Below, piece by piece: positions 3,047 to 61,192 of a stretch of 64,000 nt of DNA. The DNA is from a virus. Lineage: Duplodnaviria; Caudoviricetes. Where the stretch lies: IMG/VR virus record IMGVR_UViG_2926647115_000001; one strand, 5' to 3'. Under the pieces are notes generated by a model that searched no databases, was not told the DNA's origin, and worked only from the letters and a program-made list of their open reading frames with translations. Both the position numbers and the translations under genes were made by a program. Each line of letters begins with the position of its first letter. Position 1 is the first letter of the stretch.

Positions 3047-3149
3047 GACTCGCCCCGCAACGCTGCGACGGCTGGACGGCGGAACGTCCGGTTGATCTCC
3101 ACTCCCCCAGCTTTGAGGTGAGGGCCTCGCCGCTACAGGGCATCGAATC

Positions 3150-3190: not shown

Positions 3191-3257
3191 TCCCGACTAC
3201 CGGCTGGCTACCAAGAGTGTCAAACTGCGTACAACCAACAGCCAGCCCGGAGTCTGC

Positions 3258-5470: not shown

Positions 5471-5473
5471 TGG

Positions 5474-6610: not shown

Positions 6611-7563
6611 TGGTGGGGCCCTTTCGTGAGGAGGTCGGCGAGCTGCGCGGTGATCGGCGCCCCGGTGGCGTCCTCGATCCAGCCATACTGGCCGCCCGCG
6701 TTCACCTCGAGGAAGGTCCATTCCCCGTCCGGCCCTATGACGAAGTCGAGCGCGCCGTAGACGAGGCCGAGTTCGCGCATCATGCAGAGGACCGCGCCGC
6801 GCACCGCGTCCGGGGGCTCGATCAGCTCGTAAGTGTTGGTGTCGTAGCCGTCCCGCCAGTCGATGTATGCGGCGGCGGTATGTGCATGAATGGCGGCTGT
6901 GGTGATCTGGTCGCCCACGACGAACATGCGCGCCTCGTGCCGCTTCGCCGCCCAGTGCTGGAACTGGTGCGCGGTGTGCTCCACACCGCGCAAATCCGCG
7001 AGGTGGGCTTCGGTGACCGGTTCGGTGCGCGCCACCTTCCGGATGCCGTCCTCCACGATGGACACCGCGCCGAGCATCTTCGTCACCGTGCGCGCTTCTC
7101 CGGCGAACTCGCGCACCGCATCAGGTTCGTTGGTGATCAGCGTGTCGGGCACGCGCACTCCGCAGCGCGCGGCCGCCGCCAGCTGCACCGGCTTGTACGC
7201 GGAGTCCGCGAGCCGCGCCGGGTGGTTGACCCACAGGACCGGCAACGCCATCAACACACCGGCGAGCCCGTACTTGGCCTCGACCTTGGCGTGCCCAAGC
7301 TCGACCTCGTTGAGGCCAGCGGGGAACCGGTAGGGCTTCGGGGAGCGGTACCAGACTGCGTCGATCGTGTCGAGTTCGACCGTGCGGTGCTCGGTGCGGA
7401 GCTGGCCGGCCCAGCGACCCCCACGCAGCCGGGCCGACAGACTCAGCTGCGTGGGGAAACGCTGGGTGTCCAGCCGATGCACCTCGACCCCGCGGTCACC
7501 CAGCTCGACGACCATCGCGTCGGCGCACGGGTCCCGCTCGTCGGCCAAGATCAGGATGGACAT
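6607..7563 (-). CDS. tgmB: ATP-grasp RiPP (graspetide) macrocyclase
   Basis: WVNHP...AYKPVQL, VPDTLITN, FQ...K..EAR, DWR, YGALDF and FLEVNAGGQYGW motifs. Confidence 0.93.
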   Translation of the reverse strand: MSILILADERDPCADAMVVELGDRGVEVHRLDTQRFPTQLSLSARLRGGRWAGQLRTEHRTVELDTIDAVWYRSPKPYRFPAGLNEVELGHAKVEAKYGLAGVLMALPVLWVNHPARLADSAYKPVQLAAAARCGVRVPDTLITNEPDAVREFAGEARTVTKMLGAVSIVEDGIRKVARTEPVTEAHLADLRGVEHTAHQFQHWAAKRHEARMFVVGDQITTAAIHAHTAAAYIDWRDGYDTNTYELIEPPDAVRGAVLCMMRELGLVYGALDFVIGPDGEWTFLEVNAGGQYGWIEDATGAPITAQLADLLTKGPHQ

Positions 7564-31877: not shown

Positions 31878-32060
31878 TCAGCCGCGGGTGCGGATCGTCG
31901 CGCCCGGCAGCGCGGCCTTCTTCGACTCCGCGGCGGCCTTGTCGTGGGTGCGGTACTTGACCACCCCGTTCTGCAGCACCTCGTAGGTGGTGCCGCCGGA
32001 CGCCGCTCGCGCCGCCGCCGTGGCCGTCGAGCCCTTCCCCTTGCTGCAGTTGCACCCCAT
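31878..32060 (-). CDS. Small basic MGCNC protein
   Basis: 60 aa with GAGGGGG RBS, between the protease and capsid genes. Confidence 0.7.
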   Translation of the reverse strand: MGCNCSKGKGSTATAAARAASGGTTYEVLQNGVVKYRTHDKAAAESKKAALPGATIRTRG

Positions 32061-34798: not shown

Positions 34799-36758
34799 CG
34801 ACGCAGCCCTCCACGACGTGGGTCAGCCGGTCGAGGTCGTGGGGGCGGCGGTCCACGATCAGCTCCGACACGTACCCGGCGAGGCTGGCTTGCAGGCATT
34901 CCGGGTTCGCGCCGTGCTTGGCCGCGATCCCCGGGACCTGCGGGAAGCTGCCGCCGAACATCGCCTCGGCGTGCTCGCGCGGCGTCTCGTGCGGTTCCCG
35001 GTCCGCGGTGAGGGAGTGCACCAGGTAGATGGCCTGGGTGTCCACGTCCCGGCATGCCGCCACCCGGGACCGCTTCCGCTTCCGCCATGCCGCGCCCGCG
35101 CGTCCAAGTGCGGAGCACACCACGACGTCGCACGCCGCCACCAGCGGCCGCACGTCCGGCCTAGCCGAGGCCGTCGCCGCCGGAGTAGCCGGTGGCTGCG
35201 GCGCGGCGGGAGCGGGTTCGCCGGGGTCGGCTGGCGCCTCGGTGGTGGTGTCGCTGGGCGCGGCAGGACCCTGCTCGCCCTGCCCGTCCTCGAGCTGCCG
35301 CGGTTCGTCCCGCTGTGTGGTGGACTCGACCCGGATGGTGTCCTTCAACCCGAGCAGCGGCGCCAGCTGGCCCCACAAGTCCGGGTGGTTCTTGAGCGCC
35401 TGGAACGCGAGGATCTTGACTCGCTCTGGCCCGTCCGGGGCCTCGCCGTCGCGCAGGCCGGTGAAGGTGCGCAGCCCGTCGCCGTTCAGCTCGCCCCGGT
35501 CATACAGCTGGATCGCGGCCTCAGTGCGGTCCGGCTTGATCTCCAGGTCCGAGAGGTCCCACCGCACCACGTGCGTGTCGTCCAGGGCGGGCACGATGAG
35601 GCCCTTGGTGAGTGCTGAGGCGATCGCCGCCACCCGCCGGACGACGTGGGTGCGGATGGACTCGGACTGGATGAACTCCGCGTTGGAGTACTTGACACCG
35701 GAAAAGCCGGTCATCGTCTCCGGGGCCATGTCCATCGACATCGCGACCCGCCGGAGGTTCATCTCCCGGAACTCGTTGACGATGCCGGTCAGCTCATAGT
35801 CGAGCTTGAGGTGTTCCAGCCGCGTGTCGGCCGGCATCTTCAGCAGCACCGGGAGGATCGCCGCGGCGGTGCCCGGGTTGGCGATGTTCGCTTGCCCGAC
35901 GGTGGCCAGCATGTGCATCAGCGGGTCCATGCCCTCCGGCACATTCGCACCAGGGGGCGCGATCGGCGCGGCCTCGGCCGGCACCTGGAGGATGCCCGCG
36001 ACGGCGATTCGGGAGAGCAGGGTGGCCTGCACGTACTGGTCCAGGCGGCACAGCTCCCGCAGGTACGGGATCGCGGGTCGAGTGGAGGAGTCGACCTGCC
36101 AGGCACGGCCGGGGTGCCGGTCCCACATGTGGATCACCAGCGTGCCCTTGGGGAGTCGTTCCTTGCGCGCCCCACCTCGGTCCACAAGGTACGGGGAGCC
36201 ACCCTTGTCGTTAGCCCGCTTCAGCTCTTGCTTGTCGAGCTTGAAGTCCTGGTCCGACCAGACGGCCCAGCCGTCGTCGTCGGACACGGTGATCAACGAC
36301 TGGCCGCTGATCATGCCCTGCACGCCGAGCGCCCACTTCAACTCCGCGGACATGGTTTCGCCGCCGAGCAGGTCCCGGGACAGCGCGGCCGCGTCTCCGG
36401 TCTCCACCTCGCGTGGCACACCGTCGTCGTCGTACTTCGCGACGAACAGGCGGGCCTGGGCCACCGAGCGGCCGTTCTGCCCGGCGACGTAATGCAGTTC
36501 ACCGACGCTGTCGTAGTACTGCCAACACTCCGTTTCCCAGCCCTCGGCGTTGTTGGGCCGGATCAGCCGGCCGGTCGGCGGGTCACCGATCCGGTAGGAC
36601 TCGGCGGTAGCGATGAGCGCGGGCGCGGCAGCCTTCTCCCACATCGCCCGCACCCGCTGCTGGGTCGCTTCGTCGGCGCCCATCTCCTGCGCCTTCTGGC
36701 CGGCGCGCTGAAGCTCCTCATCCACCCACCCGCTCACGGGTGGCCGCTTACCGCCCAC
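34785..36758 (-). CDS. Portal protein
   Basis: 657 aa after the terminase; W.YYDSVGEL.Y, W..HP, ATLLSRIAVAGIL.VP and A...DM.PE motifs. Confidence 0.85.
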   Translation of the reverse strand: MGGKRPPVSGWVDEELQRAGQKAQEMGADEATQQRVRAMWEKAAAPALIATAESYRIGDPPTGRLIRPNNAEGWETECWQYYDSVGELHYVAGQNGRSVAQARLFVAKYDDDGVPREVETGDAAALSRDLLGGETMSAELKWALGVQGMISGQSLITVSDDDGWAVWSDQDFKLDKQELKRANDKGGSPYLVDRGGARKERLPKGTLVIHMWDRHPGRAWQVDSSTRPAIPYLRELCRLDQYVQATLLSRIAVAGILQVPAEAAPIAPPGANVPEGMDPLMHMLATVGQANIANPGTAAAILPVLLKMPADTRLEHLKLDYELTGIVNEFREMNLRRVAMSMDMAPETMTGFSGVKYSNAEFIQSESIRTHVVRRVAAIASALTKGLIVPALDDTHVVRWDLSDLEIKPDRTEAAIQLYDRGELNGDGLRTFTGLRDGEAPDGPERVKILAFQALKNHPDLWGQLAPLLGLKDTIRVESTTQRDEPRQLEDGQGEQGPAAPSDTTTEAPADPGEPAPAAPQPPATPAATASARPDVRPLVAACDVVVCSALGRAGAAWRKRKRSRVAACRDVDTQAIYLVHSLTADREPHETPREHAEAMFGGSFPQVPGIAAKHGANPECLQASLAGYVSELIVDRRPHDLDRLTHVVEGCVDGAE

Positions 36759-39378: not shown

Positions 39379-39966
39379 CTATCGGGCGGCGTCGAGGAAT
39401 TCCGCGCGCGCCGCGGGCTCGGTGAGCAGCACCCCCCGCAGCGCCGTCGTGGTCATCTGCGCGCCCGGCTTCCGCACCCCCCGCACGGCCATGCACGAGT
39501 GCGTGGAGGTCACCTTCACCCCGACCCCGACCGGGGACAGGTGGGTGGCGATCGCGTCGGCGATCTGCTCGGTCAGCCGTTCCTGCACCTGTAAGCGGCG
39601 GGCGAAGTGGTCGACCAGCCGCGGCAGCTTCGAGAGCCCAACAACGTCCTGCCCGGCCGGGATGTAGGCGACCCAGGCGCGGCCGGTGAACGGCAACAGG
39701 TGGTGCTCGCACACGGAGTCGAACGGGATCGGCCCCACGGTGATCATCTGCCCCGAGCCGGTGCCCTCGCCGAACACCCGCGCCAGCAGCGCGGCCGGGT
39801 CTCCCGGCCGATCGGTCATGTCGATCAGCGCGTCGATCACCCGCCGGGGCGTGTCCTCGAGCCCGGCCCGGTCCGGGTCGTCCCCGGTGAGCGCGATCAT
39901 GGCGCGCACGCCCTCGGTGGCGATCTTCCGCAGCCGCGCGGTCTCCGCGGCGTCGGTGGCGTTCAT
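39379..39966 (-). CDS. folE: GTP cyclohydrolase I
   Basis: GLEDTPRRV, SVCEHHLLPF, GLSKLPR, RRLQVQERLT and HSCM..RG motifs. Confidence 0.95.
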   Translation of the reverse strand: MNATDAAETARLRKIATEGVRAMIALTGDDPDRAGLEDTPRRVIDALIDMTDRPGDPAALLARVFGEGTGSGQMITVGPIPFDSVCEHHLLPFTGRAWVAYIPAGQDVVGLSKLPRLVDHFARRLQVQERLTEQIADAIATHLSPVGVGVKVTSTHSCMAVRGVRKPGAQMTTTALRGVLLTEPAARAEFLDAAR

Positions 39967-40712
39967 CGGCCCCGTTCCTCTCCCCACAGCAGCGTGTGCA
40001 AACGGCTGGTGGTGTTCCAGCCGCGCGCGATGACGCCGTCGACCAGGGCGCGGTGGGTGGTGAGCACCTGCTCGGGTGTGACGCCTTCCGGCATCACCCA
40101 CACCGCCCCGGCCGGCACCTGGTGCTCGTCCACCACGGCGGCGATCTCGTCCAGGTCCTCCCGGGTCGTGGCCACGAACTTGAAGCACGCCCGGCCGGTG
40201 GCGGCGATCTCCGCGAACCGGGCGAGCGCCTTGGGGCGGATGCGGCGCTTGGCCGTGTCGGCGCCGTTGTTCGCCAGCTTCGGCGACACCGTGAAGTGCG
40301 CGACCAGCTCGACCACCGACCCGGACGGCGGGATGGTCCCGTTGGTCTCGACGTGCACCTCACCGGCCGCGGTCAACCCGGCCAAGAGGGCGTCCATCGC
40401 GGGTTTGCGCTGGTGCATCAACGGTTCCCCGCCGGTGAGCACGAACAGCGGCACACCAAAGCTCGTGGCCTGCTCGACGATCGCGGCGACCTGGGTGTCC
40501 GGGATCTCCTCCGCAAGGTCGAACCGGGACGCGTCCCACGTGAACGCGCTGTCGCACCACCGACAGGCGAGGTTGCACAGACCGAGCCGCACGAACACCG
40601 CCTGCCGCCCGGTCGCCGGCCCTTCACCCTGGATCGTGCGGAAGCACTCGGCGAACGGCAGTTGCATCGACCGCTGCCCCAGCAGCCGCCCGAGGTGCAG
40701 CCCGGCCGTCAC
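39963..40712 (-). CDS. queE: 7-carboxy-7-deazaguanine synthase (radical SAM)
   Basis: TIQGEG, CNLACRWCD, LTGGEP, ETNG and VSPKL motifs. Confidence 0.95.
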   Translation of the reverse strand: MTAGLHLGRLLGQRSMQLPFAECFRTIQGEGPATGRQAVFVRLGLCNLACRWCDSAFTWDASRFDLAEEIPDTQVAAIVEQATSFGVPLFVLTGGEPLMHQRKPAMDALLAGLTAAGEVHVETNGTIPPSGSVVELVAHFTVSPKLANNGADTAKRRIRPKALARFAEIAATGRACFKFVATTREDLDEIAAVVDEHQVPAGAVWVMPEGVTPEQVLTTHRALVDGVIARGWNTTSRLHTLLWGEERGR

Positions 40713-41149
40713 GGGGCCACCTCGGCGCGGTTGTTCTCGGTCTCCTGCACCACGACACGCGCCACCCGCAGCGGCGTGGTGTAGCCGCCGACGATCTCCG
40801 CCGCCACCCGGGACAGCAGCTCGGCGACCGCCTCCACCGTGGGCCACGACAGGTCGCGCGCCAGGCGGTGCTCGCCGAACCGGAACACCTTCAACCCGCC
40901 ATCGACGAGCCGGGCCGCCCACTCGTCTTCGGCGCCGAGCAGCATGCCGTGGTCGAGGTTCTGGTCAACCCACCGTTGCAGCGCGGCTTTCAGCTCCCCG
41001 AAGTCGACCACCACGTCCTGGTCGTTCATCGTCCCGGCGACGGTGATCCACCCCTGCCACGAGTGGCCGTGCAGGTTGTGGCACTTCCCGGGCAGCTGCG
41101 GGAGCCGGTGACCGGCCTCGAACCTGACCCGGATGGACACGTTCGTCAC
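40709..41149 (-). CDS. queD: 6-carboxytetrahydropterin synthase
   Basis: FEAGHRL, C.NLHGHS, VDFGELK, LDH, PTVE and ET motifs. Confidence 0.93.
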   Translation of the reverse strand: MTNVSIRVRFEAGHRLPQLPGKCHNLHGHSWQGWITVAGTMNDQDVVVDFGELKAALQRWVDQNLDHGMLLGAEDEWAARLVDGGLKVFRFGEHRLARDLSWPTVEAVAELLSRVAAEIVGGYTTPLRVARVVVQETENNRAEVAP

Positions 41150-41817
41150 GCGGCCACCTCGTACACGGTCGGGTCCGCCACCCCGGAGTCGGCGAACGCT
41201 TCGCGCCGCTCCACGCAGGTGCCGCACTGTCCGCAGTGGACCTCGCGGCCCTCGTAGCAGGACCACGTCAGGCCCACCGGCACGGCGAGGTCCCCAGCGC
41301 GGGCGGCGATCGCGGTCTTGGAGATGTGCACGAACGGCGCGTCGAGGGTGACGGCACCGTCGGTGCCCAGCTCGATGGTGCGGCGTGCGGCGTCGACGAA
41401 CTCGGGCCGGCAGTCCGGGTAGATGGGGTGGTCCCCGGCGTGCATCGCCGCCACGACGTGGGTGCAGCCGGTGGACAGCGCGACACCGGCGGCCGCCATG
41501 AGAAGGGTGGCGTTGCGGTTCGGCACGACCGTGGCGGCCATCGACGGCGCCGCGTAGTGCCCGTGCGGTACCGCCACGTCGGTGTCGGTGAGCGCGGACC
41601 CGGACAGGTGGGTGCCCCAGGAGGTCAGGTCCAGGACGCGGTGCTCGACACCGTAGTGCGCAGCGACCTCCGCGGCGGAGCGCAGCTCGCGGGCGTGCCG
41701 CTGCCCGTAGTTCACCGACAGCGCCACCCGGGCGGTGCCTTCGGCGTGCCGCAACCCGAGCGCGGTGGCGGAGTCCAGCCCGCCGGAGAGCAGGACAAGG
41801 TCGCGACGTTCGGTCAT
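41146..41817 (-). CDS. queC: 7-cyano-7-deazaguanine (preQ0) synthase
   Basis: LSGGLDS, YGQRH, VPNRN, YPDCRPEF and TWSCY...HCGQCGTC motifs. Confidence 0.96.
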   Translation of the reverse strand: MTERRDLVLLSGGLDSATALGLRHAEGTARVALSVNYGQRHARELRSAAEVAAHYGVEHRVLDLTSWGTHLSGSALTDTDVAVPHGHYAAPSMAATVVPNRNATLLMAAAGVALSTGCTHVVAAMHAGDHPIYPDCRPEFVDAARRTIELGTDGAVTLDAPFVHISKTAIAARAGDLAVPVGLTWSCYEGREVHCGQCGTCVERREAFADSGVADPTVYEVAA

Positions 41818-42719
41818 CGGGTGGTCTCCTTCGCTAGAACGGTGTCGCGGATGAGGGTGATGTCGGCGAGGTTCCCGGCGGCGAGGTAAACCTTGAGGCC
41901 GTCGCCGGTGGTGCTTCCCGACCGCGGGGCCGGCACGGTGCCGCGCCAGCCGCGGACGTGCGCCTCGTACCGGCGGAACGACTCGATCGTGGCGCGGTTC
42001 AGCCATTCGCGGTCCCTGCTGCCGCGCGGGCCGACCTCGCGCACGAGCGCGAACCCGGGTGTGGACACGTGCGTCGGGTTGCCGCCGTAGGCGCGGATGA
42101 GGTTGGCGTGCTGGGCCGCGCGTCGGTCACCGACGCGGAAGGTCTGGAAATGCCTGCCGTTCCACAGTGTCAAGGTGCCGGTGCGGGAAGCCGAGTTCCA
42201 GTAGGACGAGTCCACCGAGTACCACGGCAGGATGTGCGGGTACGGCGGCCGGGTCAGCCCGAACCCGTGCAGCCGGGTGTTGTAGTCGCGGGCGATCTGG
42301 TGGGCCTTGATCAGCCACCGCATCATCGCCATCTCCCGTTTCGCGAGGTGCACGGCGCCGCCGAGCGCCACATACGGGTGCTCCGCGCACAGCCGGTGCA
42401 GCTCAGGCCACGGGCTCCCGACGTGGAACGCGGGCATGATCGTGACCCGGCCGCCAGTGCGGGCCAGCAGCCGCTCGGTGTTGCGGGCCGTCGCCACCGG
42501 GTCGCCGATAACGTCGAGCGTGGCCGCGCAGTTGATCACCGCGGCGTGCTGGGTGAGCCAGTCGCCGTACTCGTCGATGTCCACCGATCCGCCTGTGGTG
42601 AAAGCGCTGAACGCGCCGCTGTCGGCGAAGAAGTCGACCCCGGGTCGCTTCTTCAGCTCCGCGGTGAGGTCGAGCTTGCGCAGGTAGAAGTACGACCCGA
42701 GGACGTGAACCGCGGTCAC
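41814..42719 (-). CDS. dpdA: DpdA-like (TGT-fold) deazaguanine DNA transglycosylase
   Basis: FFADSGAFS, LDVIGD, P.FH, YVALGG, LHGFG and SVDSS TGT-fold motifs; coupled to queC. Confidence 0.8.
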   Translation of the reverse strand: MTAVHVLGSYFYLRKLDLTAELKKRPGVDFFADSGAFSAFTTGGSVDIDEYGDWLTQHAAVINCAATLDVIGDPVATARNTERLLARTGGRVTIMPAFHVGSPWPELHRLCAEHPYVALGGAVHLAKREMAMMRWLIKAHQIARDYNTRLHGFGLTRPPYPHILPWYSVDSSYWNSASRTGTLTLWNGRHFQTFRVGDRRAAQHANLIRAYGGNPTHVSTPGFALVREVGPRGSRDREWLNRATIESFRRYEAHVRGWRGTVPAPRSGSTTGDGLKVYLAAGNLADITLIRDTVLAKETTR

Positions 42720-43330
42720 AGCTCGGCCCGGTCGATGCCGAGCGCGGCGGCGAACGCCGCCACCTCGTCCCCAGTGTGCGTGTCGACGTGCGCCTTCCAC
42801 GCCGCCATCAGCATCGGCGGGATCGACAGCCGCAGCACCGGCCACAGCTCCGGGTCCGCCCCGTCGTCGTCGCTGGACCCGTACTCCTCCGCCAGCGAGT
42901 CCAGATCCGCGGGCTCGCCGAGCTGCTTGGACAGTTGCTCGAGGTCGGACTCGTCGTAGCCGGTGCCAGCCAGGTCCGGCAGCTCGGCCAACAGTTCGGC
43001 CAGCAGCCGATCGTCGTACCCGCTGCCCACCTCCGCGGTGCGGTTGTCCGCAAGCACGATGCGGCGGGCGCGTTCGTCATCGCAGGTGATCACGTCGCAC
43101 CGGATCGTCAGCCACCCCTCCTCGCGGGCCGCCAGGTAGGTGTGGTTCCCGGCCAGCACAGTGCCGCCGGCGCGCGGGTTGTCCGGGTCGTCGGCGCGGA
43201 CCACGATCGACCGGTACTGCTTGTTCTCCCGCAGCGACTCGCGGATGACCGCGAGGTTGCCCTGTCGCGGGTTGCCCGGGAACGGGCTGAGTGTGTCGAT
43301 CGGCAGCTCGAACGTGCCCAAGTAGTCCAA
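42716..43330 (-). CDS. ParB/Srx N-terminal-domain protein
   Basis: L.P.PGNPR, I..SL, VLAGNHT..AA and LADNRT motifs; GTGA overlap with dpdA. Confidence 0.85.
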   Translation of the reverse strand: MDYLGTFELPIDTLSPFPGNPRQGNLAVIRESLRENKQYRSIVVRADDPDNPRAGGTVLAGNHTYLAAREEGWLTIRCDVITCDDERARRIVLADNRTAEVGSGYDDRLLAELLAELPDLAGTGYDESDLEQLSKQLGEPADLDSLAEEYGSSDDDGADPELWPVLRLSIPPMLMAAWKAHVDTHTGDEVAAFAAALGIDRAEL

Positions 43331-43589
43331 CGGATCCCCCCAGATACCCCCGGTCTTGCTGGTCGCGATTCTGCCACAGCTGTTGCGCAACTGTTTCGAT
43401 GACGCGCGGCGCGGGTACCCGCGGGAAAGAGGCGGCGGGGGCGTCCTGCGACCCCCCTCGATCCGCAGGACACCCCCGACAGTGGGGACCCGGAAAGCCG
43501 GGACAAGCAGCCGAAACGGTGCGTCACACGCGACTGTCGGGACCCCGTCTCCCCCCTCGTGGCGACATCCTAACCCCGTGATCGCTCCG

Positions 43590-43620
43590 GACCGCAACAC
43601 CTGGCGTTAGTGTTGCGGTC
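43590..43620. promoter_or_regulatory. Inverted-repeat operator upstream of the IHF-like gene
   Basis: GACCGCAACAC-N9-GTGTTGCGGTC, perfect 11-bp arms. Confidence 0.6.
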
Positions 43621-46722: not shown

Positions 46723-47090
46723 CAGACCGGTCCTCCCGGTTGCGCGTCGGCCAGGGGCTCCACCGGCGCGGGCAGGTGGTCGAGCTGGTGCAGCAGCCCG
46801 GACCCGCTGCACTCGCGGCAGAGCACCAGGACGCCGGGCTCGCCGCCGTCGACGACCCTGTCCCCCGCCCGCGGCGCGCGTGGGTGGGTGTTGCGCTCGA
46901 GAGTGTCGGCGGCGTCGGAGAGCAGGTACACCCACTCGGCGTCGCCCATCTCCACCGCGCGCTGCCGCAGCGCGCGCACAGCGGCGATGGCCCCGCCCCG
47001 CGCGACCGCGTTCGGCTCGGTCCCGTCAGGGAGCCGGTCTGCGGCGCGGTCGGCGGCGTGGGCGATACCGAGGGCCAGTTCCACCGTCAC
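46722..47090 (-). CDS. Hypothetical protein
   Basis: Coupled ORF with a CRECSGSG motif. Confidence 0.5.
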   Translation of the reverse strand: MTVELALGIAHAADRAADRLPDGTEPNAVARGGAIAAVRALRQRAVEMGDAEWVYLLSDAADTLERNTHPRAPRAGDRVVDGGEPGVLVLCRECSGSGLLHQLDHLPAPVEPLADAQPGGPV

Positions 47091-47491
47091 TGGGCCACCG
47101 CCTTGTCGACGGAGAAGCGCAGGGTGCGGGTCGGGTCGTCGGTCAGGGTGTAGGTCTTGCCGCCGTCGGTGCTGAACGCGGCCGGGTTGCGGCGGGACTG
47201 GTACAGGCCGGGCTGCCCGGCCACGGCCTCGTCGTGCTCGAACCACTCGGCCGGGTCGGTGGTGAGCGGCGACAGCGGCTGGAAACGCGCGAGCGTGCTG
47301 AACACCTCCACGGTGTGCTCGGCACTGAATCCGGAGTGCCCACCGCCCGCGAACACGCGGATCAGGTCGAGGAGGTGGCCGCGCATCGGGTCTTCCTCGC
47401 CGATCAGGTCCAGCTCGCGGATCGCGTGCTGCACCAACGGGGACTCCGCCGTCGTGTCCTCGGGGTGGGTGGGCTGCTGAGGGTTGGTCAC
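47087..47491 (-). CDS. Conserved phage hypothetical protein
   Basis: LV.HA.REL, F...GHSGFSA, PLSPLT.DP.EW, QS.R....FS.DGG..Y; GGGAG RBS. Confidence 0.7.
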   Translation of the reverse strand: MTNPQQPTHPEDTTAESPLVQHAIRELDLIGEEDPMRGHLLDLIRVFAGGGHSGFSAEHTVEVFSTLARFQPLSPLTTDPAEWFEHDEAVAGQPGLYQSRRNPAAFSTDGGKTYTLTDDPTRTLRFSVDKAVAQ

Positions 47492-47565
47492 TTGTTCTCC
47501 CGTCGCAGGGGTTCGGTACCAGAGAGGGCGCGGCACCGCGCGGACTGGCGGAGCTGCGCGGGTAG

Positions 47566-47901
47566 TCACAGGAATTTGGTGCCGCCGCCGGACAGGCCGG
47601 GCGCGGTCTTGGACAGCTCGGCCTGGAGCTGCTTGACGATTCCGGCCGCGGTCTCGGGATCGAGGTCCGGGGTGTTGACGATGAACACGGCGGGTCGATC
47701 GATTCGCTCAGCCACGGCGAGTTGGGCGTAGCCCTGCCCGATCCGGGCTGCGGCATCCAGCAGCGCCGGCTGGTTGCCCGTGTGGTTCGCCAGCTGGTCG
47801 TGCAGCTCCGCTGCCTTGTCGAGGTACAGGCGGGCCGCGGTCATGCTGTCCAGTGGCTCGGCGTCGCTGGTGTCGACGGCTTCGGTGTTTTCGTTCTCCA
47901 T
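47566..47901 (-). CDS. Hypothetical protein
   Basis: 111 aa with AAGGGGG RBS. Confidence 0.6.
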   Translation of the reverse strand: MENENTEAVDTSDAEPLDSMTAARLYLDKAAELHDQLANHTGNQPALLDAAARIGQGYAQLAVAERIDRPAVFIVNTPDLDPETAAGIVKQLQAELSKTAPGLSGGGTKFL

Positions 47902-49101: not shown

Positions 49102-49389
49102 TCAGTGTTGGCGTTTCTTGAGCTTGCGGCGTTCGCGTTCGGACAGGCCGCCCCAGATGCCGAACCGCTCGTCGTTGTCGAGCGCGTATTGCAGGCATTC
49201 GCCCCTGACTTCGCAGCTGTGGCAGATGCGTTTGGCCTCCCGGGTGGAGCCACCCTTGTCCGGGAAGAACGCCTCGGGGTCGGTCTCCTTGCAGAGGGCG
49301 CGGTCCTGCCATGCGGGCTGTTCGTCTGCGTCGAAGGGTGCGACGAGATCGGCCAGGGTCAGGTTCTCGCTGGCGGTTGTGCGGGTCAC
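49102..49389 (-). CDS. whiB: WhiB-family regulator (WhiB2-like)
   Basis: WQDRALC.ETDPEAFFP.KGGSTREAKRIC..C.VR..CL.YAL..DERFGIWGGLSERERR. Confidence 0.95.
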   Translation of the reverse strand: MTRTTASENLTLADLVAPFDADEQPAWQDRALCKETDPEAFFPDKGGSTREAKRICHSCEVRGECLQYALDNDERFGIWGGLSERERRKLKKRQH

Positions 49390-49467: not shown

Positions 49468-49725
49468 CTACACGGGTGTGAGGTTGCGGCTCGCGGCCTG
49501 GCGGCGGGCGCTCCGGCGCTCGGCCGGGGTGGTGCCGCCGTAGATGCCGTTGTCGTCGCTCATGCCGTAGGCCAGGCACTCGGCCTGGACGGGGCAGTGG
49601 TGGCACACGGCCTTGGCGCGGGCGGCCTGCCGGTCGTAGCCGGGGGTGCCGGGCTCGCCGACCGGGAAGAACGTCTCGGGGTCCTCGGCCCGGCAGACGG
49701 CTCGGGTCTTCCAGTCGGCGGACAT
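49468..49725 (-). CDS. whiB: WhiB-family regulator (WhiB1-like)
   Basis: DW..RAVCR.EDPE.FFPVG...AKAVC..CPV...CL...GIYGG; GAAAGGAGG RBS. Confidence 0.92.
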   Translation of the reverse strand: MSADWKTRAVCRAEDPETFFPVGEPGTPGYDRQAARAKAVCHHCPVQAECLAYGMSDDNGIYGGTTPAERRSARRQAASRNLTPV

Positions 49726-49936: not shown

Positions 49937-49978
49937 AAAAAGGGCGGGGGCCGTCCCGTCGCGGGACGGCCCCCGCCC
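49937..49978 (-). terminator. Intrinsic terminator after traB
   Basis: 17-bp perfect stem GGGCGGGGGCCGTCCCG/CGGGACGGCCCCCGCCC followed by a U-tract on the - strand. Confidence 0.85.
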
Positions 49979-49997: not shown

Positions 49998-52565
49998 CTA
50001 CACGGTCACCCCTGCCGCACGGCGCAGCGCGCCGACGTTCACCGCGTTCCCGCTCGCCGTGCGCTTGAACGCGGTGTCCGGCAGGTTCCACGGCGCCTGC
50101 CGCAGCGACGTGCCGAACCGGCCCGCCTCCAACCGGGCCTGGGCCGCGTCCTCCGCAGTCACCGCCCCGGCCTCCCGGCCCAGCTCCCCGACCAGCTTCC
50201 ACTCGTCGTCGCCCAGCTCGTCGATCGCGGCGATCACCGGCGCCATCACCGCGATGTCGGCGCGGTCCGTCTCACGCGGAGCCGGGACACTGTCGCCGGC
50301 CTCCTCCCGCATGACCTGCCGGATGCGGGACTCAAGCACGTCACGCTGCCAACCCAGCTCGTCGCCGCGCCGCTCCGGCACCAGCTCGTACGGCTCGGCG
50401 GTGAAGTACGCGACCAGCTCGTCCCCGGCGGCGTCGATGTCGGCCCGCGGCGCGTCCCGGGCCACCAGGTGCGCGGCCAGGGCGAGCTTCCAGGCAGCGC
50501 AGAACGCGGGCGCGTTGCTGGCCTTGATCGCGCTGATCACCCCGGAGCGGATCGCCGACCGGCGCTTCCGCTCGGCCGCCATCCGCTCCAGGGCAGCCTC
50601 CATCGCGGCCGCCTCGCTGTTGAAGTCCAGGCTCCTGGTCATCGTCTCCTCCTGGGGTGTGTCCATGCCGTTGTTGGGCGTGGCCCATACCCCCTCGGGG
50701 TCTAGTGTCCCGTGATCAGGGGAAACAATCAACTCGCTTGGCGTTTCCGCTGGTCGCGGGTTGAGGTGTACCGCGCCCGTCACCTCGGGGGAAATCCGCG
50801 GGTACGGCAGGCCCTGGCTTTCCAGGAAGTCGGCCAAGTCCTTCTGCCGCTCCGGGTTCCACCGCTCGGTGTAGGACTCGCCCATCTCCCCCACCAGCCA
50901 CGCAGGCAGGGTCGGCCGGTGCGGCGTGTAGGCCACGGCCATCGCGCTGATCGCTCCCAGGTCCAGTTCCCCGTCGCGCACCAGCGAGTACGCCTTGGAC
51001 GGGATGACGCGCGCCTGCTCCCGGTTGGGCTGGACCATGAAGGTGTTGTTCCGCAGCTTGGTGGTGTCCACCGACTTGATGCCGTTCAGCGTCGCGGAAC
51101 CGTCGTGGTAGCTGTTGGTGCGGCCGGCGATGCGCACGTTGATGTTGCGCAGAGTGTTGGTGCCGTGGGGACCGAGGGCGTCGACCAATCCGAACTGGGT
51201 CAGGAAGAACACGCCGTAGCCCGCGGAGCGGGCCATGGAGCAGATCTCGTCGAGTAGTGCGGACGCGGTCCACACCCGGCCGTCGAACGTCTCGATCTTC
51301 GGTTCGGTGATCTTCGCCAGGGAGGTGGCCTCGTCGATGATCAGCACGAGGGCTGGGTCTTCGGGGGTGGGTTTGCGCTTGTCGACGAACCCGAGCCGCT
51401 TGTTCTGCAGGCTCGCGGCCATGTAGAAGTCCGCGAGCATCAGAAGGACTTCGTCGATGTTTTCGCCACCGATGCGCTGGATCACCGGACGGTCGGTGAG
51501 CCCGGTAAGCCACGGGTGCAGCCACGGCCCGACCAGCGGCATCATCTTCTTCACGCCGCAGCACCACAGCTCGAGGTCGTGGCGGCGCACGAACTCGGCG
51601 ATGAAGTTGTGCGCCAGGATCGACTTGCCCGACCCGGTACCGCCGACCACGACGGTGTGCTCACCGAGCATCGAGATCTCAATGGGCTCGCCGTCCTCAT
51701 AGATGCCGGGGTTGACCGGCTCCTTGATCGTGGTGACCGGCCGGATTCCGGGGTGGGGCACATCCTTCTTGAGCGGCTGCTTCGTGGAGACGTGCAGCAG
51801 CCACACGTGAGCCATGCTGGTTTCCTCGGCGCGGATGTCGTTGACGCCCAGCTCGATGCCTTGCTTGGCGTAGTGCTTCGAGGCGAGCACCGCCAGCGTG
51901 GGGATCGCATCGGTCAGGGCGGTGAACGTGGCCACCTGCCCGTCGGTGGGGTCGTCCGCGAGGGTGAGGGTGTACCCGGCTTTGGTGTCGGTGAAGTCGT
52001 CGACCACGACGCCGCCGAGCCTTTCGCACTTGGCCAGCCACGGTCCCCAGAGCTGCTGATAGGTGGAGGCGCGGAGGTGGCGTTCGTGCTCGGCGCGGCG
52101 TTCGGCGATCTCTTCCTTCTGCTCGGCGCGCTCGGCTTGGCGCTGGGGTTCCTTGGAGCGCCAGAGGGCGTAGGCGATACCGAAGGTGACGGTCCACAGC
52201 ACGAGCAGCCCGAGGGCGGTGGGGTTGGTGGGGTCACCGTCGGCGAACACCAGCCACCCGGTGGCCGCGAGGCCGGCGGCGATGGTGAGGCGTTTCGCGT
52301 GGGTCTCGTGCTTGGCGCCGAAGGTGTCCTCGTCCACCCACACGCGGGCGGTGATGACCGCGGCCGCGGTGAACGCGAGCCCGGTGGGGGCCATGACCCA
52401 GCCGGGGAGGTGCATCCAGTGGGGCAGGAACGCGAGCGCGTAGAGGGCGAGCGCGGCGAGCAACGGGTGGAACCACCGCTTGTCGGGGTCCCAGTCAGTT
52501 GGGATGGGGTCGAGGGTCGCGTCGACCACGGGGGGCGTGGTCTCCGCCTTCTCGGTCGTGGTCAC
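49998..52565 (-). CDS. traB: TraB-like FtsK/SpoIIIE DNA translocase
   Basis: N-terminal TM helices, Walker A GGTGSGKS, Walker B LIIDE, ARSAG...TQ arginine-finger region, C-terminal helical repeats. Confidence 0.8.
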   Translation of the reverse strand: MTTTEKAETTPPVVDATLDPIPTDWDPDKRWFHPLLAALALYALAFLPHWMHLPGWVMAPTGLAFTAAAVITARVWVDEDTFGAKHETHAKRLTIAAGLAATGWLVFADGDPTNPTALGLLVLWTVTFGIAYALWRSKEPQRQAERAEQKEEIAERRAEHERHLRASTYQQLWGPWLAKCERLGGVVVDDFTDTKAGYTLTLADDPTDGQVATFTALTDAIPTLAVLASKHYAKQGIELGVNDIRAEETSMAHVWLLHVSTKQPLKKDVPHPGIRPVTTIKEPVNPGIYEDGEPIEISMLGEHTVVVGGTGSGKSILAHNFIAEFVRRHDLELWCCGVKKMMPLVGPWLHPWLTGLTDRPVIQRIGGENIDEVLLMLADFYMAASLQNKRLGFVDKRKPTPEDPALVLIIDEATSLAKITEPKIETFDGRVWTASALLDEICSMARSAGYGVFFLTQFGLVDALGPHGTNTLRNINVRIAGRTNSYHDGSATLNGIKSVDTTKLRNNTFMVQPNREQARVIPSKAYSLVRDGELDLGAISAMAVAYTPHRPTLPAWLVGEMGESYTERWNPERQKDLADFLESQGLPYPRISPEVTGAVHLNPRPAETPSELIVSPDHGTLDPEGVWATPNNGMDTPQEETMTRSLDFNSEAAAMEAALERMAAERKRRSAIRSGVISAIKASNAPAFCAAWKLALAAHLVARDAPRADIDAAGDELVAYFTAEPYELVPERRGDELGWQRDVLESRIRQVMREEAGDSVPAPRETDRADIAVMAPVIAAIDELGDDEWKLVGELGREAGAVTAEDAAQARLEAGRFGTSLRQAPWNLPDTAFKRTASGNAVNVGALRRAAGVTV

Positions 52566-52831
52566 GGGTCCTCCGGGGGAATGCCGAGTCGGTGGGCTTG
52601 GTCGCGGGTGAGGATCACGTACCCGGCGTTGCGCAACAGCGCGACGAGGGCGTGGGGGTCGAGGTGGTCCAGCGGGTCAGGCTCGGCGACGTCGACGACG
52701 ATCGACCCGGATGGCAGCCGCCGGGCGTGGACGCCTTCGGGCAGCTTGTCCTGCTGGAACCAGCGGTAGGCCGTGGTCGGCGCAATGCCGTGCTGTCGGG
52801 CCCACTGTTTGAGGTAGATCGTCGTCGGCAT
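52562..52831 (-). CDS. Small MerR/Xis-like HTH protein
   Basis: LKQWARQHGI...TAYRWF....LP....R.PSG.I.V; GTGA overlap with traB. Confidence 0.75.
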   Translation of the reverse strand: MPTTIYLKQWARQHGIAPTTAYRWFQQDKLPEGVHARRLPSGSIVVDVAEPDPLDHLDPHALVALLRNAGYVILTRDQAHRLGIPPEDP

Positions 52832-52921
52832 GGCGCTGATAGTGCCAGGTGTACCGCTGTGGCCGGTCTAGCTGCGGGTTTCGTGGCGGGTGGTCGGGTT
52901 GTCGCTCATCGCGGTCCTCCT

Positions 52922-52984
52922 GTTGCGAACGGTTGCGGTACCGATAGTCCCAACAGTACCGCAACCGCTAGACTGTTGTGCAAC
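52922..52984. promoter_or_regulatory. Operator cluster in the divergent traB / spd promoter region
   Basis: CGGTTGCGGTAC-N14-GTACCGCAACCG perfect 12-bp inverted repeat plus GTTGTGCAAC. Confidence 0.65.
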
Positions 52985-53018
52985 ACACCACCGGCCACAC
53001 CGCCCCCGAGGGAACACC

Positions 53019-54359
53019 GTGAACGACATCCCGCCCGCCACGTACAGCTGGTGGCACCGCTGGCGCCTCGGCTCGATCGAGGTCACCCGCGCCAAGCACG
53101 CCGCCGACGCCGAACGCAAGGCCGCCCAGGAACGCGACCGCAAGACCAAGCAGCGCGACACCGCCGCCGAGCGGCGAGCCCGCCGCATCCGCCGCCGCGA
53201 CTGGCTCGTCGAGCACCGCGCCCTGATCGCCACGGTCTCCGCCGTCACCGTCTCGGTCGCCGTCGCGATCCCCGCCCAGGCGCTCTGGTTCGTCCACGTC
53301 CTCGCCAGCGGCCAGCTCGGGCTCAACCCCGAAAGCCTCATCGCGCTCGCCTCCCCCGTGCTCATCGAGGGGCTGTGCTGGCTCGGCGCGTTCCTCTACG
53401 CCGACAGCCTCGGCCGCGACACGCCCGTGCGTGCCTACCGGCTCACCACGTTCCTGTTCGCCGGCATCGCCGCAGCGATCAACTTCGCCCACGGCTGCGG
53501 CATCAACCCGATCGTCGGCGTTGTGTTCGCGATCGCGTCCCTGATGGGCGTCGCGTCGTGGGAGCTCTACATGCACCGCACGCGGCACATCGCCACCGGG
53601 ATGACCGCGGACGAGATCCGGCTGTGGTTCAAGCGGCGTGTGTTCGACCGCAAGGTCTACCGGGAGATGCAGCGTCTCCGGCGCACGTTCGGGGCGCAGG
53701 TGCCGCTGGAGTCCGCGTGGCGCATGGGGTACCTCCGGGTGCACGGGGCGCCCACGGTTCCGGTTCCGGTTCCGCGGGACCTGCTGGACTGGTTCCGCAA
53801 GGACGGTTCCGCACGTGGTTCCGCGGACGGTTCCGACGGTTCCGGCACCGGTTCCACGCCCAGTTCCGAGGGCGGTTCCGGCTCGGGTTCCGTCGCGGTG
53901 CTCGACCGGTCCAAGGACGGTTCCACGGTGGAGGTCCCGGTGAACTGGGACCAGTTCCGCGACGTCGACTCCATCATCGCGGCGCACTGGCCGGAGCTGG
54001 ACCCCGCGAACCACCCGGACCCGTCACTGCACCAGGACGACGCCAAGCGCCGGCATCCCGCGTCCGGCCTGCACGTCGAGGAACCTGCCCCGGCGTCCAC
54101 CAGCGGCCCCGCCACCAGCGCGGCCCCGGAACAGGAACCCGAGCCGCGACCGCTGCCGGGACTCAACCGGGAGGAGCGGAACCTCGGCGTGACCGGCGGC
54201 GCCACCGCGGCGCTGCACCGGTACTTCGACCGGATCGCGTCCGAGGGGCACGACCCGGACGACGTGAACCGGCAGGAACTCGCCCGGGAGCTCGGGTGCT
54301 CGGCGCGGAACGTCGGCAAGGCGCTGGCGAAGTGGGCGAAGAACCGGAACCACGCGTGA
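53019..54359 (+). CDS. DUF2637/SpdB-like multi-TM protein with C-terminal HTH
   Basis: Coiled coil, four TM helices (P.LIEG, AAAINF.H), low-complexity linker, RQELARELGCS..NV HTH. Confidence 0.75.
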   Translation: MNDIPPATYSWWHRWRLGSIEVTRAKHAADAERKAAQERDRKTKQRDTAAERRARRIRRRDWLVEHRALIATVSAVTVSVAVAIPAQALWFVHVLASGQLGLNPESLIALASPVLIEGLCWLGAFLYADSLGRDTPVRAYRLTTFLFAGIAAAINFAHGCGINPIVGVVFAIASLMGVASWELYMHRTRHIATGMTADEIRLWFKRRVFDRKVYREMQRLRRTFGAQVPLESAWRMGYLRVHGAPTVPVPVPRDLLDWFRKDGSARGSADGSDGSGTGSTPSSEGGSGSGSVAVLDRSKDGSTVEVPVNWDQFRDVDSIIAAHWPELDPANHPDPSLHQDDAKRRHPASGLHVEEPAPASTSGPATSAAPEQEPEPRPLPGLNREERNLGVTGGATAALHRYFDRIASEGHDPDDVNRQELARELGCSARNVGKALAKWAKNRNHA

Positions 54360-54456
54360 CCTGGGGCGGGAACCACCGGAACCGGTCGGGAACCGCCGAG
54401 GAACCGGGGACGAACCGCCCCCGGTCCGCCACGGAACCGGCCACGGAACTGGTTCC
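53756..54456. repeat. Polar hexamer array: GGTTCC x12 followed by GGAACC x9
   Basis: 12 GGTTCC counted in 53756-53924 and 9 GGAACC in 54080-54438, plus variants. Confidence 0.85.
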
Positions 54457-54480
54457 GGACCACCACCGAAGGAGAACCGC

Positions 54481-54822
54481 TTGGCCCCAACCCGCACCTC
54501 CGCCGCGCCCGTGCCGGCGACCGACGAGGACCGATCCCCCCGACCTGGCGACCGCGTCCTCGTCGCGATGCGGAACCAGGGCATCGTCGCGTCAGGCGGC
54601 GGCGTGTTCCACGTCGACGAGAACGGCGACTTCCCGAACAAGGACCTCGTCGCACGCGGCGAGGCCACCGTGCACGTGCTGCCGCCCGAGGTCCGCACGC
54701 TTCCGGTAACCCGGGAGGCGCTGGCCGAGTTCTTCGGCCCGATCCGGCTGCCCAACGGCGCGAACGTCACCGGCCACTTCGTGCAGCTCGCCCTGGCCCT
54801 GCACCGCGAAGCGCAGCGGTAG
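54481..54822 (+). CDS. Hypothetical protein
   Basis: TTG start with GAAGGAG RBS; followed by a hairpin. Confidence 0.65.
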   Translation: MAPTRTSAAPVPATDEDRSPRPGDRVLVAMRNQGIVASGGGVFHVDENGDFPNKDLVARGEATVHVLPPEVRTLPVTREALAEFFGPIRLPNGANVTGHFVQLALALHREAQR

Positions 54823-54848
54823 CGGCGTCGCGGACTGCCGGTTGCAGC

Positions 54849-54885
54849 AAGGGCCCGTCATCGACGAGATCGGTGACGGGCCCTT
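54849..54885 (+). terminator. Terminator hairpin
   Basis: AAGGGCCCGTCA...TGACGGGCCCTT. Confidence 0.75.
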
Positions 54886-54892
54886 CGTCGTC

Positions 54893-55203
54893 CCTTGGCC
54901 AGTGGAACCCCTTGTGCTACCTCTGACCTGCGAAAACTCCGCGGGTGGAACGGGTGTGGAACGTCGGTGCGGCGGCTGGTTCCACTGGCCAAGGTCCGCC
55001 CTGGTCGGTGTGGAACAGGTGTGGAACCCGCACCGCGGATGCCCGTGCTACCGGTGAGCTGCTGCGATGCGCCGCCAGGCCGGCATGTGGAACGGTGTGG
55101 AACCGCTCCGCGCCGGAGGGGGGTGGGTGATCGTTTCCGCAGGTCATGATCGCGTACCCCATGTCGTGTCGTGTGTGGAACCTCGGGGTTCCACTGGTTC
55201 CAC
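54893..55203. repeat. Non-coding GTGGAAC iteron-like array with nested inverted repeats
   Basis: 8 GTGGAAC plus 3 GTTCCAC; 17-bp perfect IR 54893-54909/54978-54994; 14-bp IR 54924-54937/55133-55146. Confidence 0.85.
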
Positions 55204-55218
55204 CGCATGGATATGGGA

Positions 55219-55248
55219 AGGCCCCGACACCGCGAGGTGTCGGGGCCT
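55219..55248 (-). terminator. Terminator hairpin
   Basis: AGGCCCCGACACC-gcga-GGTGTCGGGGCCT, perfect 13-bp stem. Confidence 0.8.
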
Positions 55249-60273: not shown

Positions 60274-60683
60274 ACCGGACGTTCCCGAACCTCGCGAGCA
60301 CCGTCGAGGAGATGCGCAAGTCCATGCAGGAGCACTACGGCGTGTGGGTGTGCTTCGTCGGCGACGACGGCGACTTGGTGGCTCTCGGCCACCACGAGCC
60401 GAAGCGTGTGCTCGCGGCTTTCAACCGCTACTGCCGGATCGAGCTGAGCATGCGAAACGTCGCGGACGACCGGGACGTGTCCTACAAGGAAGCCGCGGAG
60501 ATCCTGCGGTGGCGGCACGGGCGGTTGATCACCGCGTGTGAGTCACCTGACCACGACGATGAAATCCGGATGGGTCACAGCTGCCACCAGTGCGCACTGC
60601 TCGGCGGCGGCGGCGAGTGGTGGCTCGACTGGTCGAACCCGGAGCACCCGGACGCGTTCCCCATCACGATGTGGCAGGTGTGA
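60270..60683 (+). CDS. Hypothetical protein
   Basis: Coupled ORF (GTGA); DGD.VALGH motif. Confidence 0.65.
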   Translation: MNRTFPNLASTVEEMRKSMQEHYGVWVCFVGDDGDLVALGHHEPKRVLAAFNRYCRIELSMRNVADDRDVSYKEAAEILRWRHGRLITACESPDHDDEIRMGHSCHQCALLGGGGEWWLDWSNPEHPDAFPITMWQV

Positions 60684-61192
60684 TCGTGGTCGATCCCGAG
60701 AAGACGCGGGCTGCGGTGGACACGGTTGCCCGCCGGGTGCTGGCCGACGCTGCGCGGACCGCGCTGGAGTCCGGGCGCGTCGGCTGGGAGGACTACCCGG
60801 AGCTGGACGAACGGGACTGGATCGCTGTCACCGAACGGGCCCGGAAGCTCGCCGCCACGCTGCAGCACTCCGAGGCCATGTACGCCGAGGCGTACCGGTA
60901 CCTCGCTGCGCAGGCCGAGCCCGACGGGCATGTCACCAGGCCCGACCCGGGGGATTTCCGGGACCGGTTCATCTACGCCGTGCAGCTCGTGACCTCGCGT
61001 CAGTTCGGCGCGAAGTCGATGGTGGCGCGGAAGTTGGGCACGGGGTGGAACGAGACGGTGCGGCTGTTCGAGCTTCTGGAGGGTTGGGGCGTGGTCGCGC
61101 CGACCGTCGGGTCGATGGCCCACAAGGTGTTGATGTCCGAGGCTGACGGGCGGGCGCTCGTCGCCGAGTTGCAGAAGGGGGAACGGGCGTGA
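60680..61192 (+). CDS. Protein with a stand-alone FtsK gamma (winged-helix) domain
   Basis: YAVQLVTSRQFGAKSMVARKLGTGWNETVRLFELLEGWGVVAPTVGSMAHKVL resembles the actinobacterial FtsK-gamma pattern QFGS.SMLQRKL..G...A.RL...LE..G.VGP..GS..R.VL. Confidence 0.75.
   Translation: MIVVDPEKTRAAVDTVARRVLADAARTALESGRVGWEDYPELDERDWIAVTERARKLAATLQHSEAMYAEAYRYLAAQAEPDGHVTRPDPGDFRDRFIYAVQLVTSRQFGAKSMVARKLGTGWNETVRLFELLEGWGVVAPTVGSMAHKVLMSEADGRALVAELQKGERA

Follow-up and report, generated by a model that had tools for sequence, protein, structure and literature searches.

Why should a prophage that encodes its own virion also carry a DNA motor of the kind found in the transfer modules of mycelial plasmids? 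The question is raised by positions 49998-55248 of IMG/VR virus record IMGVR_UViG_2926647115_000001, a 64,000-nucleotide stretch of DNA (the window) that lies within a temperate tailed phage integrated in the chromosome of a filamentous soil actinomycete. A sequence-only reading had described this locus as a mycelial-type conjugation module, composed of an FtsK/SpoIIIE-type ATPase, a coupled small helix-turn-helix (HTH) gene, a divergent gene for a DUF2637-like protein with four transmembrane (TM) helices, and two dense arrays of short repeats. All of these parts are present, at the coordinates listed below. Judged by sequence, the module is homologous to the Tra/DUF2637/clt transfer apparatus of actinomycetes, and it shares ultimate ancestry with transfer modules carried by actinomycete plasmids and by AICEs, the integrative and conjugative elements of actinomycetes. 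It suggests a second, particle-free route of spread for the prophage. The best reading of its function, with a probability of about one half, is virion-independent translocation of double-stranded DNA (dsDNA), across septa or between hyphae.

The ATPase and its divergent partner

The source replicon is a complete 7.3-Mb genome of ~70% G+C (window at G000:C1:500631-564630). Because many spurious open reading frames (ORFs) arise at such a composition, the genes of the window were called from third-position G+C bias (GC3). The motor, its operon and the divergent gene comprise the following features, each with its strand and the basis of the call.

49942-49978 (- strand): intrinsic terminator with a 17-bp G+C stem and a T tail, ending the HTH-ATPase operon (inverted repeat)
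49998-52565 (- strand): membrane-anchored Tra/TraB-clade FtsK-like ATPase P0001, 855 aa (ORF, profiles, trees)
50001-50567 (- strand): predicted tandem winged helices of P0001, aa 667-758 and 770-855 (AlphaFold2 model, VIA matches)
50886-51728 (- strand): P-loop motor domain of P0001, aa ~280-560 (profiles, motifs)
52161-52478 (- strand): N-terminal membrane anchor of P0001, aa ~30-135, with 3-4 hydrophobic helices (hydropathy, sequence)
52562-52831 (- strand): 89-aa Xis/MerR-like HTH gene P0003 (ORF, weak HTH matches, conservation in phage PIS 136)
52832-53018 (no strand): divergent control region with the inverted repeat CGGTTGCGGTAC-N14-GTACCGCAACCG at 52930-52967 (repeat search)
53019-54359 (+ strand): 446-aa DUF2637-like protein P0002 (alignment, PF10935, hydropathy)

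The hydrophobic helices of P0001 (Kyte-Doolittle peaks at aa 35-53, 55-75 and 116-134) precede a motor domain whose Walker A (GGTGSGKS, aa 308-315) and Walker B (LIIDE, with E412) motifs are invariant across the family. The protein matches PHROG 31069, 'FtsK/SpoIIIE-like', with an E-value of 6.6e-19. A search with the family profile recovered 161 representatives at E <= 1e-30, so the wider ATPase family is a large one; a search for related loci with a single-protein query returned none.

The proposal that this is a Tra-type motor and not a chromosomal FtsK is supported by phylogeny. In two maximum-likelihood trees P0001 is placed within the Tra/TraB clade of plasmids and AICEs and outside FtsK and EccC, with Shimodaira-Hasegawa-like approximate likelihood ratio test (SH-aLRT) values of 96 and 86. 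Its BLASTP match to the FtsK of the host chromosome has an E-value of 0.24, as against 1e-16 to 1e-7 for TraB-like proteins, and the profile scan returned no FtsK_gamma (PF09397) match in P0001. The sister clade of its family (SH-aLRT 93) holds pZL12.71c, gp102 of Streptomyces phage Hiyaa, gp063 (P1312_063) of Thermobifida phage P1312 and a gene of a 90-kb Streptomyces phage-plasmid. By these placements, and by its NCBIfam score given below, P0001 is neither a chromosomal FtsK nor a canonical TraB.

The C-terminus of the protein offers a possible means of DNA recognition. When the last 214 residues were modelled with AlphaFold2, they formed two winged-helix units, each with the order H-b-H-H-b-b, at a mean predicted local distance difference test (pLDDT) score of 86.7. 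The best VIA matches of the model are the winged helices of Rex, MarR, Scc1 and Cdt1 (Z 5-7.5); a Foldseek search against the PDB gave weak winged-helix rows at E > 0.1, none of them significant. The tandem winged helices of the model are candidate readers of the repeats described below.

Upstream of the ATPase gene, the TGA stop of P0003 overlaps the GTG start of P0001 (GTGA), an arrangement of translational coupling. The HTH matches of P0003 are weak (HTH_17 and HTH_Tnp_1, E 0.01-0.15), and the gene is kept in the isolated phage PIS 136. In seven related loci (L007, L008, L009, L012, L014, L015 and L028) the position held here by the 89-aa HTH gene, directly upstream of the ATPase, is taken by a conserved protein whose N-terminal TM helix is followed by a long Gly/Arg-rich stretch and by a C-terminal domain of ~130 aa (MPNPF...EDKWDVS.NR). 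This protein gave no family match. The inverted repeat at 52930-52967, in the divergent control region, is an inverted pair of the GCAAC-type motif ACCGCAAC, of which the prophage carries 44 copies, many of them intergenic, at 5.4x the genome density. A related GGTTGCG...CGCAACC repeat stands at the same position in PIS 136.

The divergent protein P0002 has a basic N-terminus, four TM helices by hydropathy, a Gly/Ser linker and an HTH-like C-terminal tail. Alignment with PIS_045 places its start most likely at the GTG at 53019, not at 52890. Its TM core shares 36-40% identity (E 1e-15 to 4e-18) with annotated DUF2637 proteins of ~480 aa from actinomycete plasmids. Such homologues stand in tra/spd-type operons; in pFP1 and pSROS01 the operons lie downstream of GntR regulators, and that of pSROS01 also includes an FtsK-like gene. 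The same pairing of ATPase and DUF2637-like gene is found in phage Hiyaa (gp98) and in an IMG/VR contig (L015). Two further DUF2637 and FtsK-like pairs are encoded in the host chromosome, within a few kb of integrases, in AICE-like elements. These elements, at G000:C1 4363181-4368404 and 2598925-2610149, each hold an integrase, a DUF2637 gene and an FtsK-like gene; in the latter an SsgA-like gene adjoins DUF2637, as it also does in plasmid pSROS01. The description of P0002 as Spd-like by the sequence-only reading is not supported as it was put. Its homologues do stand in plasmid tra/spd operons; since SpdB of pIJ101 gave no Pfam match, DUF2637 is not tied to the Spd protein of that plasmid, and the label is one of gene context, not of family.

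The repeat arrays and their linkage to the motor gene

Beyond the TM core of P0002 the locus is dominated by short repeats, arranged as follows.

53755-53925 (+ strand): GGTTCC array inside the P0002 gene, read as GTT CCG in one frame and as GGT TCC in another (motif counts)
54346-54460 (+ strand): intergenic GGAACC array, of polarity opposite to the coding array (motif counts)
54481-54822 (+ strand): 113-aa ORF between both arrays, with no family match in profile scans (GC3 gene call)
54849-54885 (no strand): hairpin with 16-bp arms, left border of the GTGGAAC array (inverted repeat)
54893-55203 (no strand): clt-like array of 11 GTGGAAC/GTTCCAC copies, with a TGACCTGCGAAAAC / GTTTCCGCAGGTCA inverted pair (motif counts)
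55219-55248 (no strand): hairpin with 13-bp perfect arms, right border of the array (inverted repeat)

Both motifs are enriched far above chance. The window holds 27 copies of GTGGAAC; shuffled sequences hold 9.75 +/- 3.05, and no shuffle reached the observed total. Of these 27 copies, 11 fall within the 302 bp of 54902-55203, where they are often paired at a distance of 10-11 bp. GGAACC occurs 86 times in the window against 41.8 +/- 6.7. The latter motif also changes polarity along the locus, as 12 - strand copies at 53756-53924, in the coding linker, are followed by nine + strand copies at 54080-54438. The GGT codons of P0002 all lie in the linker (8/8), and elsewhere in the window GGT accounts for 12% of glycine codons. 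Because the hexamer is written in two reading frames and draws on this rare codon, the pattern points to selection on GGTTCC itself at the DNA level.

The arrays are conserved in PIS 136. This phage carries both of them in identical order and with identical motifs, together with the same TGACCTGCG[T/G]AAAC inverted pair; its GGAACC array lies at 39757-39890. The DNA of the two regions is 68% identical over aligned stretches that make up 52% of the 5.25-kb query.

Linkage to the motor gene extends beyond this phage lineage. A homologous array lies directly 3' of the ATPase gene in two related loci (L008 and L013) and one gene further on in two others (L009 and L011). Its motif is GTGGCAG (GTGGCA in L013), the layout is the same, and it has a central CTGCG(A/G)AAA-like core. 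The other neighbours in these four loci differ, with no DUF2637 gene, no HTH gene and no 113-aa ORF. In the Saccharothrix locus (L011), none of the called genes in the 10-kb flanks matched any protein of the prophage. This locus carries a divergent GntR/UTRA regulator and an HTH_36/DUF2786 protein, and by its gene content the layout is of the plasmid or AICE transfer operon type. Since homologous arrays follow the ATPase gene in loci with different neighbours, it is the motor gene that the array accompanies, not the phage backbone. The view of the repeats as clt-like has therefore gained from wider comparison: the motif is kept in PIS 136, the array accompanies the ATPase in unrelated contexts, and in both respects the arrays appear to behave like clt.

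The GTGGAAC and GTGGCAG groups also have different residues in the second winged helix. As the two motif groups coincide with two phylogenetic branches, this difference was not counted as covariation of motif and winged helix. A further dense array, of CCGGTCC/CCGGACC with up to 13 copies per 300 bp, lies at 5600-6800 of Thermobifida phage P1312 (L047), directly after its FtsK-like gene and within two overlapping 'hypothetical' ORFs.

Phage ownership and competing explanations

The element that carries the module is a prophage of ~121 kb. A tRNA-Gly(tcc) gene stands just left of the window; its last 26 bases (3' end) are repeated at genome position 621459, and this 26-bp direct repeat, at 500287 and 621459, bounds the prophage. 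A tyrosine integrase gene is at window positions 1-1119. The virion and lysis set includes a large terminase, a MuF-type head protein in the MuF/portal region, a 1255-aa protein of tape-measure size and an M15 lysin; other genes encode QueC/QueD 7-deazaguanine enzymes, a Tad3 anti-Thoeris protein, WhiB and a C5 methylase. Synteny by tblastx with the isolated temperate Saccharomonospora phage PIS 136 (JX006077, 94.9 kb) covers the tail, head and terminase genes, mIHF, WhiB, the ATPase/DUF2637/array region and DnaB. Attachment (att) bounds, integrase, terminase, portal/MuF region, tape measure, lysin and synteny with an isolated phage together identify a temperate tailed phage. SsgA-like proteins are a mark of sporulating mycelial actinomycetes. 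As the host genome has four SsgA-like genes, the host is a sporulating mycelial actinomycete.

It might be supposed that the module is the remnant of an AICE or plasmid inserted into the prophage, either decaying or carried as a passenger. Relatives of the ATPase do occur in AICE- and plasmid-like loci with a GntR regulator, and the host holds several AICE-like elements. AICEs combine Int, Rep and Tra modules (PMC3218068, PMC2440964), and by definition hold all three together in one short att-bounded element (PMC3218068). The sequence-only reading had looked to such boundaries as the sign of a nested element and had itself favoured control by the phage. The prophage has a single integrase, separated from the ATPase gene by ~50 kb that include the virion module, and profile scans of the neighbours of the ATPase returned no Rep family. 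The flanks of the module hold no att-like repeats, their direct repeats being imperfect, short and at the chance level for 70% G+C DNA. The block is instead syntenic in PIS 136, in the same order from the terminase through WhiB to the arrays, at protein identities of ~46% (ATPase) and 58% (DUF2637). All ORFs of the module are intact, G+C is flat across it and its flanks, and its divergent promoter holds the GCAAC-type inverted repeat common to the prophage. Since the module lacks an integrase, rep gene and att repeats of its own, it is by its gene content phage-owned and not a nested AICE, an explanation that is already largely refuted and now scarcely credible.

Building on the anatomy, homology, conservation and array-ATPase linkage described so far, the following scheme infers that the ATPase binds DNA, where and in which direction it pumps, and when the module is expressed. 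The module would have been inherited vertically within large temperate siphophages of Pseudonocardiaceae (PIS 136-like). The divergent promoter, with its prophage-wide inverted repeat, would drive two units, the HTH-ATPase operon and the DUF2637 gene. The N-terminal helices may anchor the ATPase in the membrane, and the two C-terminal winged helices may recognise the GTGGAAC/GGAAC repeats on phage genomes that are excised or replicating. The motor would then assemble on the repeats and drive phage dsDNA through a membrane or septum, either into the next compartment of the hypha or into another hypha in contact with it, with the four-TM DUF2637 protein as its putative membrane partner. The outcome would be spread of the phage without virions. 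A broader form of the proposal is more tentative: that in PIS 136-like, pZL12-like, Hiyaa-like and P1312 phages, a TraB-type motor and a clt-like site provide a second, virion-independent route of hyphal infection, with polar GGAAC-type signals for loading or direction written into coding sequence against codon bias. On this broader reading one genome would have two modes of transmission, as phage and as conjugative element, and receptor-based resistance would be no bar to spread inside a mycelium or from one mycelium to another.

The main rival to the transfer reading, unlikely on balance yet to be taken seriously, is a motor for segregation or septum clearing within one mycelium, comparable to SpoIIIE, SftA or FtsK. 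Replicating or excised phage genomes would be pumped through vegetative or sporulation septa as these close, which would leave no compartment or spore without the phage, with no transfer between individuals, and the polar GGAAC repeats would be direction signals like the FtsK orienting polar sequences (KOPS). The flip from GGTTCC to GGAACC polarity, kept in PIS 136, recalls KOPS polarity, WhiB genes lie in the same block, and a separate FtsK-gamma-domain protein is encoded nearby. This 200-aa protein (60590-61192, + strand) has a C-terminal FtsK_gamma winged helix (31.5 bits, cut-off 30.6), a weak DUF2742 match and no motor domain, and could be a second reader of short polar repeats. The plasmid pair SpdA2/sps, moreover, affects segregational stability and not transfer (PMC4170104). 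Against septum clearing stand the grouping of the ATPase with conjugative Tra/TraB rather than chromosomal FtsK, and a partner gene typical of plasmid transfer operons; the two mechanisms overlap in intramycelial 'spread', which makes them hard to tell apart by sequence alone. A doubtful alternative assigns the arrays to another protein altogether, as iterons of a replication origin or partition site that lie near the ATPase gene by accident. Candidate binders include the HTH in the C-terminal tail of the DUF2637 protein and the product of the 113-aa ORF. The repeats are indeed 10-11 bp apart, in both orientations and between two hairpins, and the arrays lie ~2 kb from the ATPase gene, directly after a DUF2637 gene with an HTH-resembling tail. 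The phage replication genes (DnaB-like and others), however, are ~50 kb away, and the homologous array follows the ATPase in the four loci that have neither of the proposed binders. Superinfection exclusion or anti-phage defence expressed from the prophage is very improbable. The ATPase core matches PADLOC mad8 at 38.8 bits, counter-defence genes (Tad3 and the 7-deazaguanine genes) lie nearby, and the PHROGs category of PHROG 31069 is 'moron / host takeover'. Since the mad8 match is to the generic P-loop core only and no other MADS component or partner gene was found, this explanation was dropped; nor is a cis-acting array that travels with the gene expected of a defence ATPase.

Several observations weigh against the transfer reading. 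Membership of the TraB family, as the sequence-only reading had named the ATPase, is not supported by NCBIfam: P0001 scores 32.4 bits on the TraB equivalog model NF041214, with a cut-off of 800, and the match is limited to aa 265-348 around Walker A. Against Pfam FtsK_SpoIIIE (PF01580) it reaches 18.7 bits, under the cut-off of 24. Both trees are quick searches with SH-aLRT support only and several long branches, for which reason they were used for placement only. The PF10935 (DUF2637) match of P0002 is borderline, at 28.6 bits in a six-frame genome search (cut-off 22.8), and was missed by hmmscan even at E = 10; annotated plasmid DUF2637 homologues score 18.5-21.3 bits on the same profile. 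Most non-phage relatives have no DUF2637 beside the ATPase. The arrays stand ~2 kb upstream of the ATPase gene, past the divergent gene, both in the window and in PIS 136, whereas clt is usually at the 3' end of the motor gene. One related phage contig (L010) has no array within reach after its ATPase gene, where a low-G+C insert is found. Lastly, Peebs-type Streptomyces phages, with genomes of 131-134 kb, also have FtsK-like genes. If these phages are strictly lytic, conjugation-like spread would be less sensible there and the role of the family may differ; such phages could gain by reaching further compartments, as septum clearing would allow.

Comparison with known systems and neighbouring genes

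TraB hexamers assemble on 8-bp clt repeats and move dsDNA, and TraB is contacted by SpdB2, a membrane protein that itself binds DNA (PMC4170104). The present system is like the TraB/Tra proteins of Streptomyces (pSVH1, pSG5, pIJ101) in having one FtsK-like P-loop motor that is membrane-associated and carries a winged helix at its C-terminus, in a cluster of 7-8 bp repeats in cis whose lineage-specific motifs go with the gene, in its mycelial host, and in its position in the same clade of the trees. It is unlike them in its score of 32 bits on the equivalog model and in its carrier, a 121-kb virion-encoding prophage. Tra of pIJ101 comprises FtsK_SpoIIIE and one C-terminal MarR-like winged helix, whereas that of P0001 is doubled. 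The arrays lie past the divergent gene, reach into coding sequence and flip in polarity, and P0001 has no adjacent GntR repressor of the KorA/TraR type. Chromosomal FtsK/SpoIIIE, which act with KOPS and SpoIIIE recognition sequences (SRS), are likewise membrane-anchored dsDNA pumps with winged-helix reading of polar short repeats; P0001 differs from them in its E-value to host FtsK, in lacking FtsK_gamma and in standing off the FtsK branch of both trees.

Among phages, pZL12 of Streptomyces is a virion-forming plasmid-phage with a reported tra locus (PMC3583192). It (phage ZL12, GQ919031) is extrachromosomal, whereas the present element integrates in tRNA-Gly via a tyrosine integrase. Presumably its tra gene is pZL12.71c, which is only ~26% identical to P0001, and a DUF2637-like profile found no such gene in a 12.9-kb stretch of pZL12. 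In Streptomyces phage-plasmids of ~90 kb, an FtsK-like gene lies just upstream of the terminase, and one plasmid encodes both terminase and capsid protein. At least 45 records of phages from mycelial actinomycetes have an annotated FtsK-like gene, and papers list such genes with a putative function (bioRxiv 10.1101/2024.02.16.580700; PMC11536984). The literature searched proposes no clt-like reading for them. The translocases of Hiyaa-type, Peebs-type and P1312 phages belong to the same superfamily and are shorter (600-700 aa). A DUF2637-like membrane protein is encoded nearby in Hiyaa and the 7-mer array of P1312 follows the gene, whereas the Peebs ATPase groups with plasmid Tra and not with the P0001 family.

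The closest counterpart is PIS 136, in which the module that the sequence-only reading had proposed to seek in related prophages is found with the same genes and arrays. The likeness covers synteny of the virion module, WhiB, the ATPase, the HTH and DUF2637 genes and both arrays. PIS 136 differs in length (94.9 kb against ~121 kb), in an extra partial ATPase paralogue, PIS_039, and in the genes right of the arrays; its record carries no annotation of a transfer module. PIS_039, at 33968-35002, is 42% identical to the ATPase core by tblastx. A low-G+C element of ~300 bp is present in two copies at 40500-40960, after the GTGGAAC array of PIS 136.

The novelty first seen in the locus was overstated, given the annotated actinophage genes and the tra locus of pZL12, both already known. 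What is new here is a module that is integrating and not plasmid-borne, has a doubled winged helix and polar repeats inside a coding region, and is kept throughout a lineage of Pseudonocardiaceae phages. With a Tra-clade motor, a DUF2637 partner and a conserved repeat site, the locus gives a concrete and testable hypothesis for the FtsK-like genes of actinophages. If the transfer reading is true, hyphal contacts could serve the temperate phages of filamentous antibiotic producers as a path for their DNA. The boundary between phage and conjugative element would be blurred past the single plasmid-phage case of pZL12, and host range, resistance and prophage spread in these producers would be seen differently.

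Several neighbouring features stand apart from the module. A Tad3 domain (type I Thoeris inhibitor, 102.6 bits) is present in a 160-aa protein at 47087-47569 (- strand), with a homologue in L010. QueD (PTPS), QueC and two further ORFs at 40709-43600 (- strand), a few genes (~2 kb) upstream of the terminase, look like a 7-deazaguanine DNA-modification set. Cargo adjacent to attL (1468-7563) comprises a TetR regulator, a 475-aa XRE/TPR regulator, an APH-type kinase, a PCMT-type methyltransferase and an MvdD-like ATP-grasp protein. The 475-aa protein (3153-4580) looks like an ordinary regulator; its homologues adjoin a Tra-like ATPase in four loci of metagenome-assembled genomes (L007, L008, L012, L013). 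A 57-nt imperfect repeat (74%) at 49260-49316 and 49662-49718 links the WhiB gene with a second ORF 400 bp away, which may be a tandem WhiB-like duplicate. In the 912-aa head protein (32060-34798, - strand), a Phage_Mu_F domain is fused to a domain of the 2'-5' RNA ligase superfamily.

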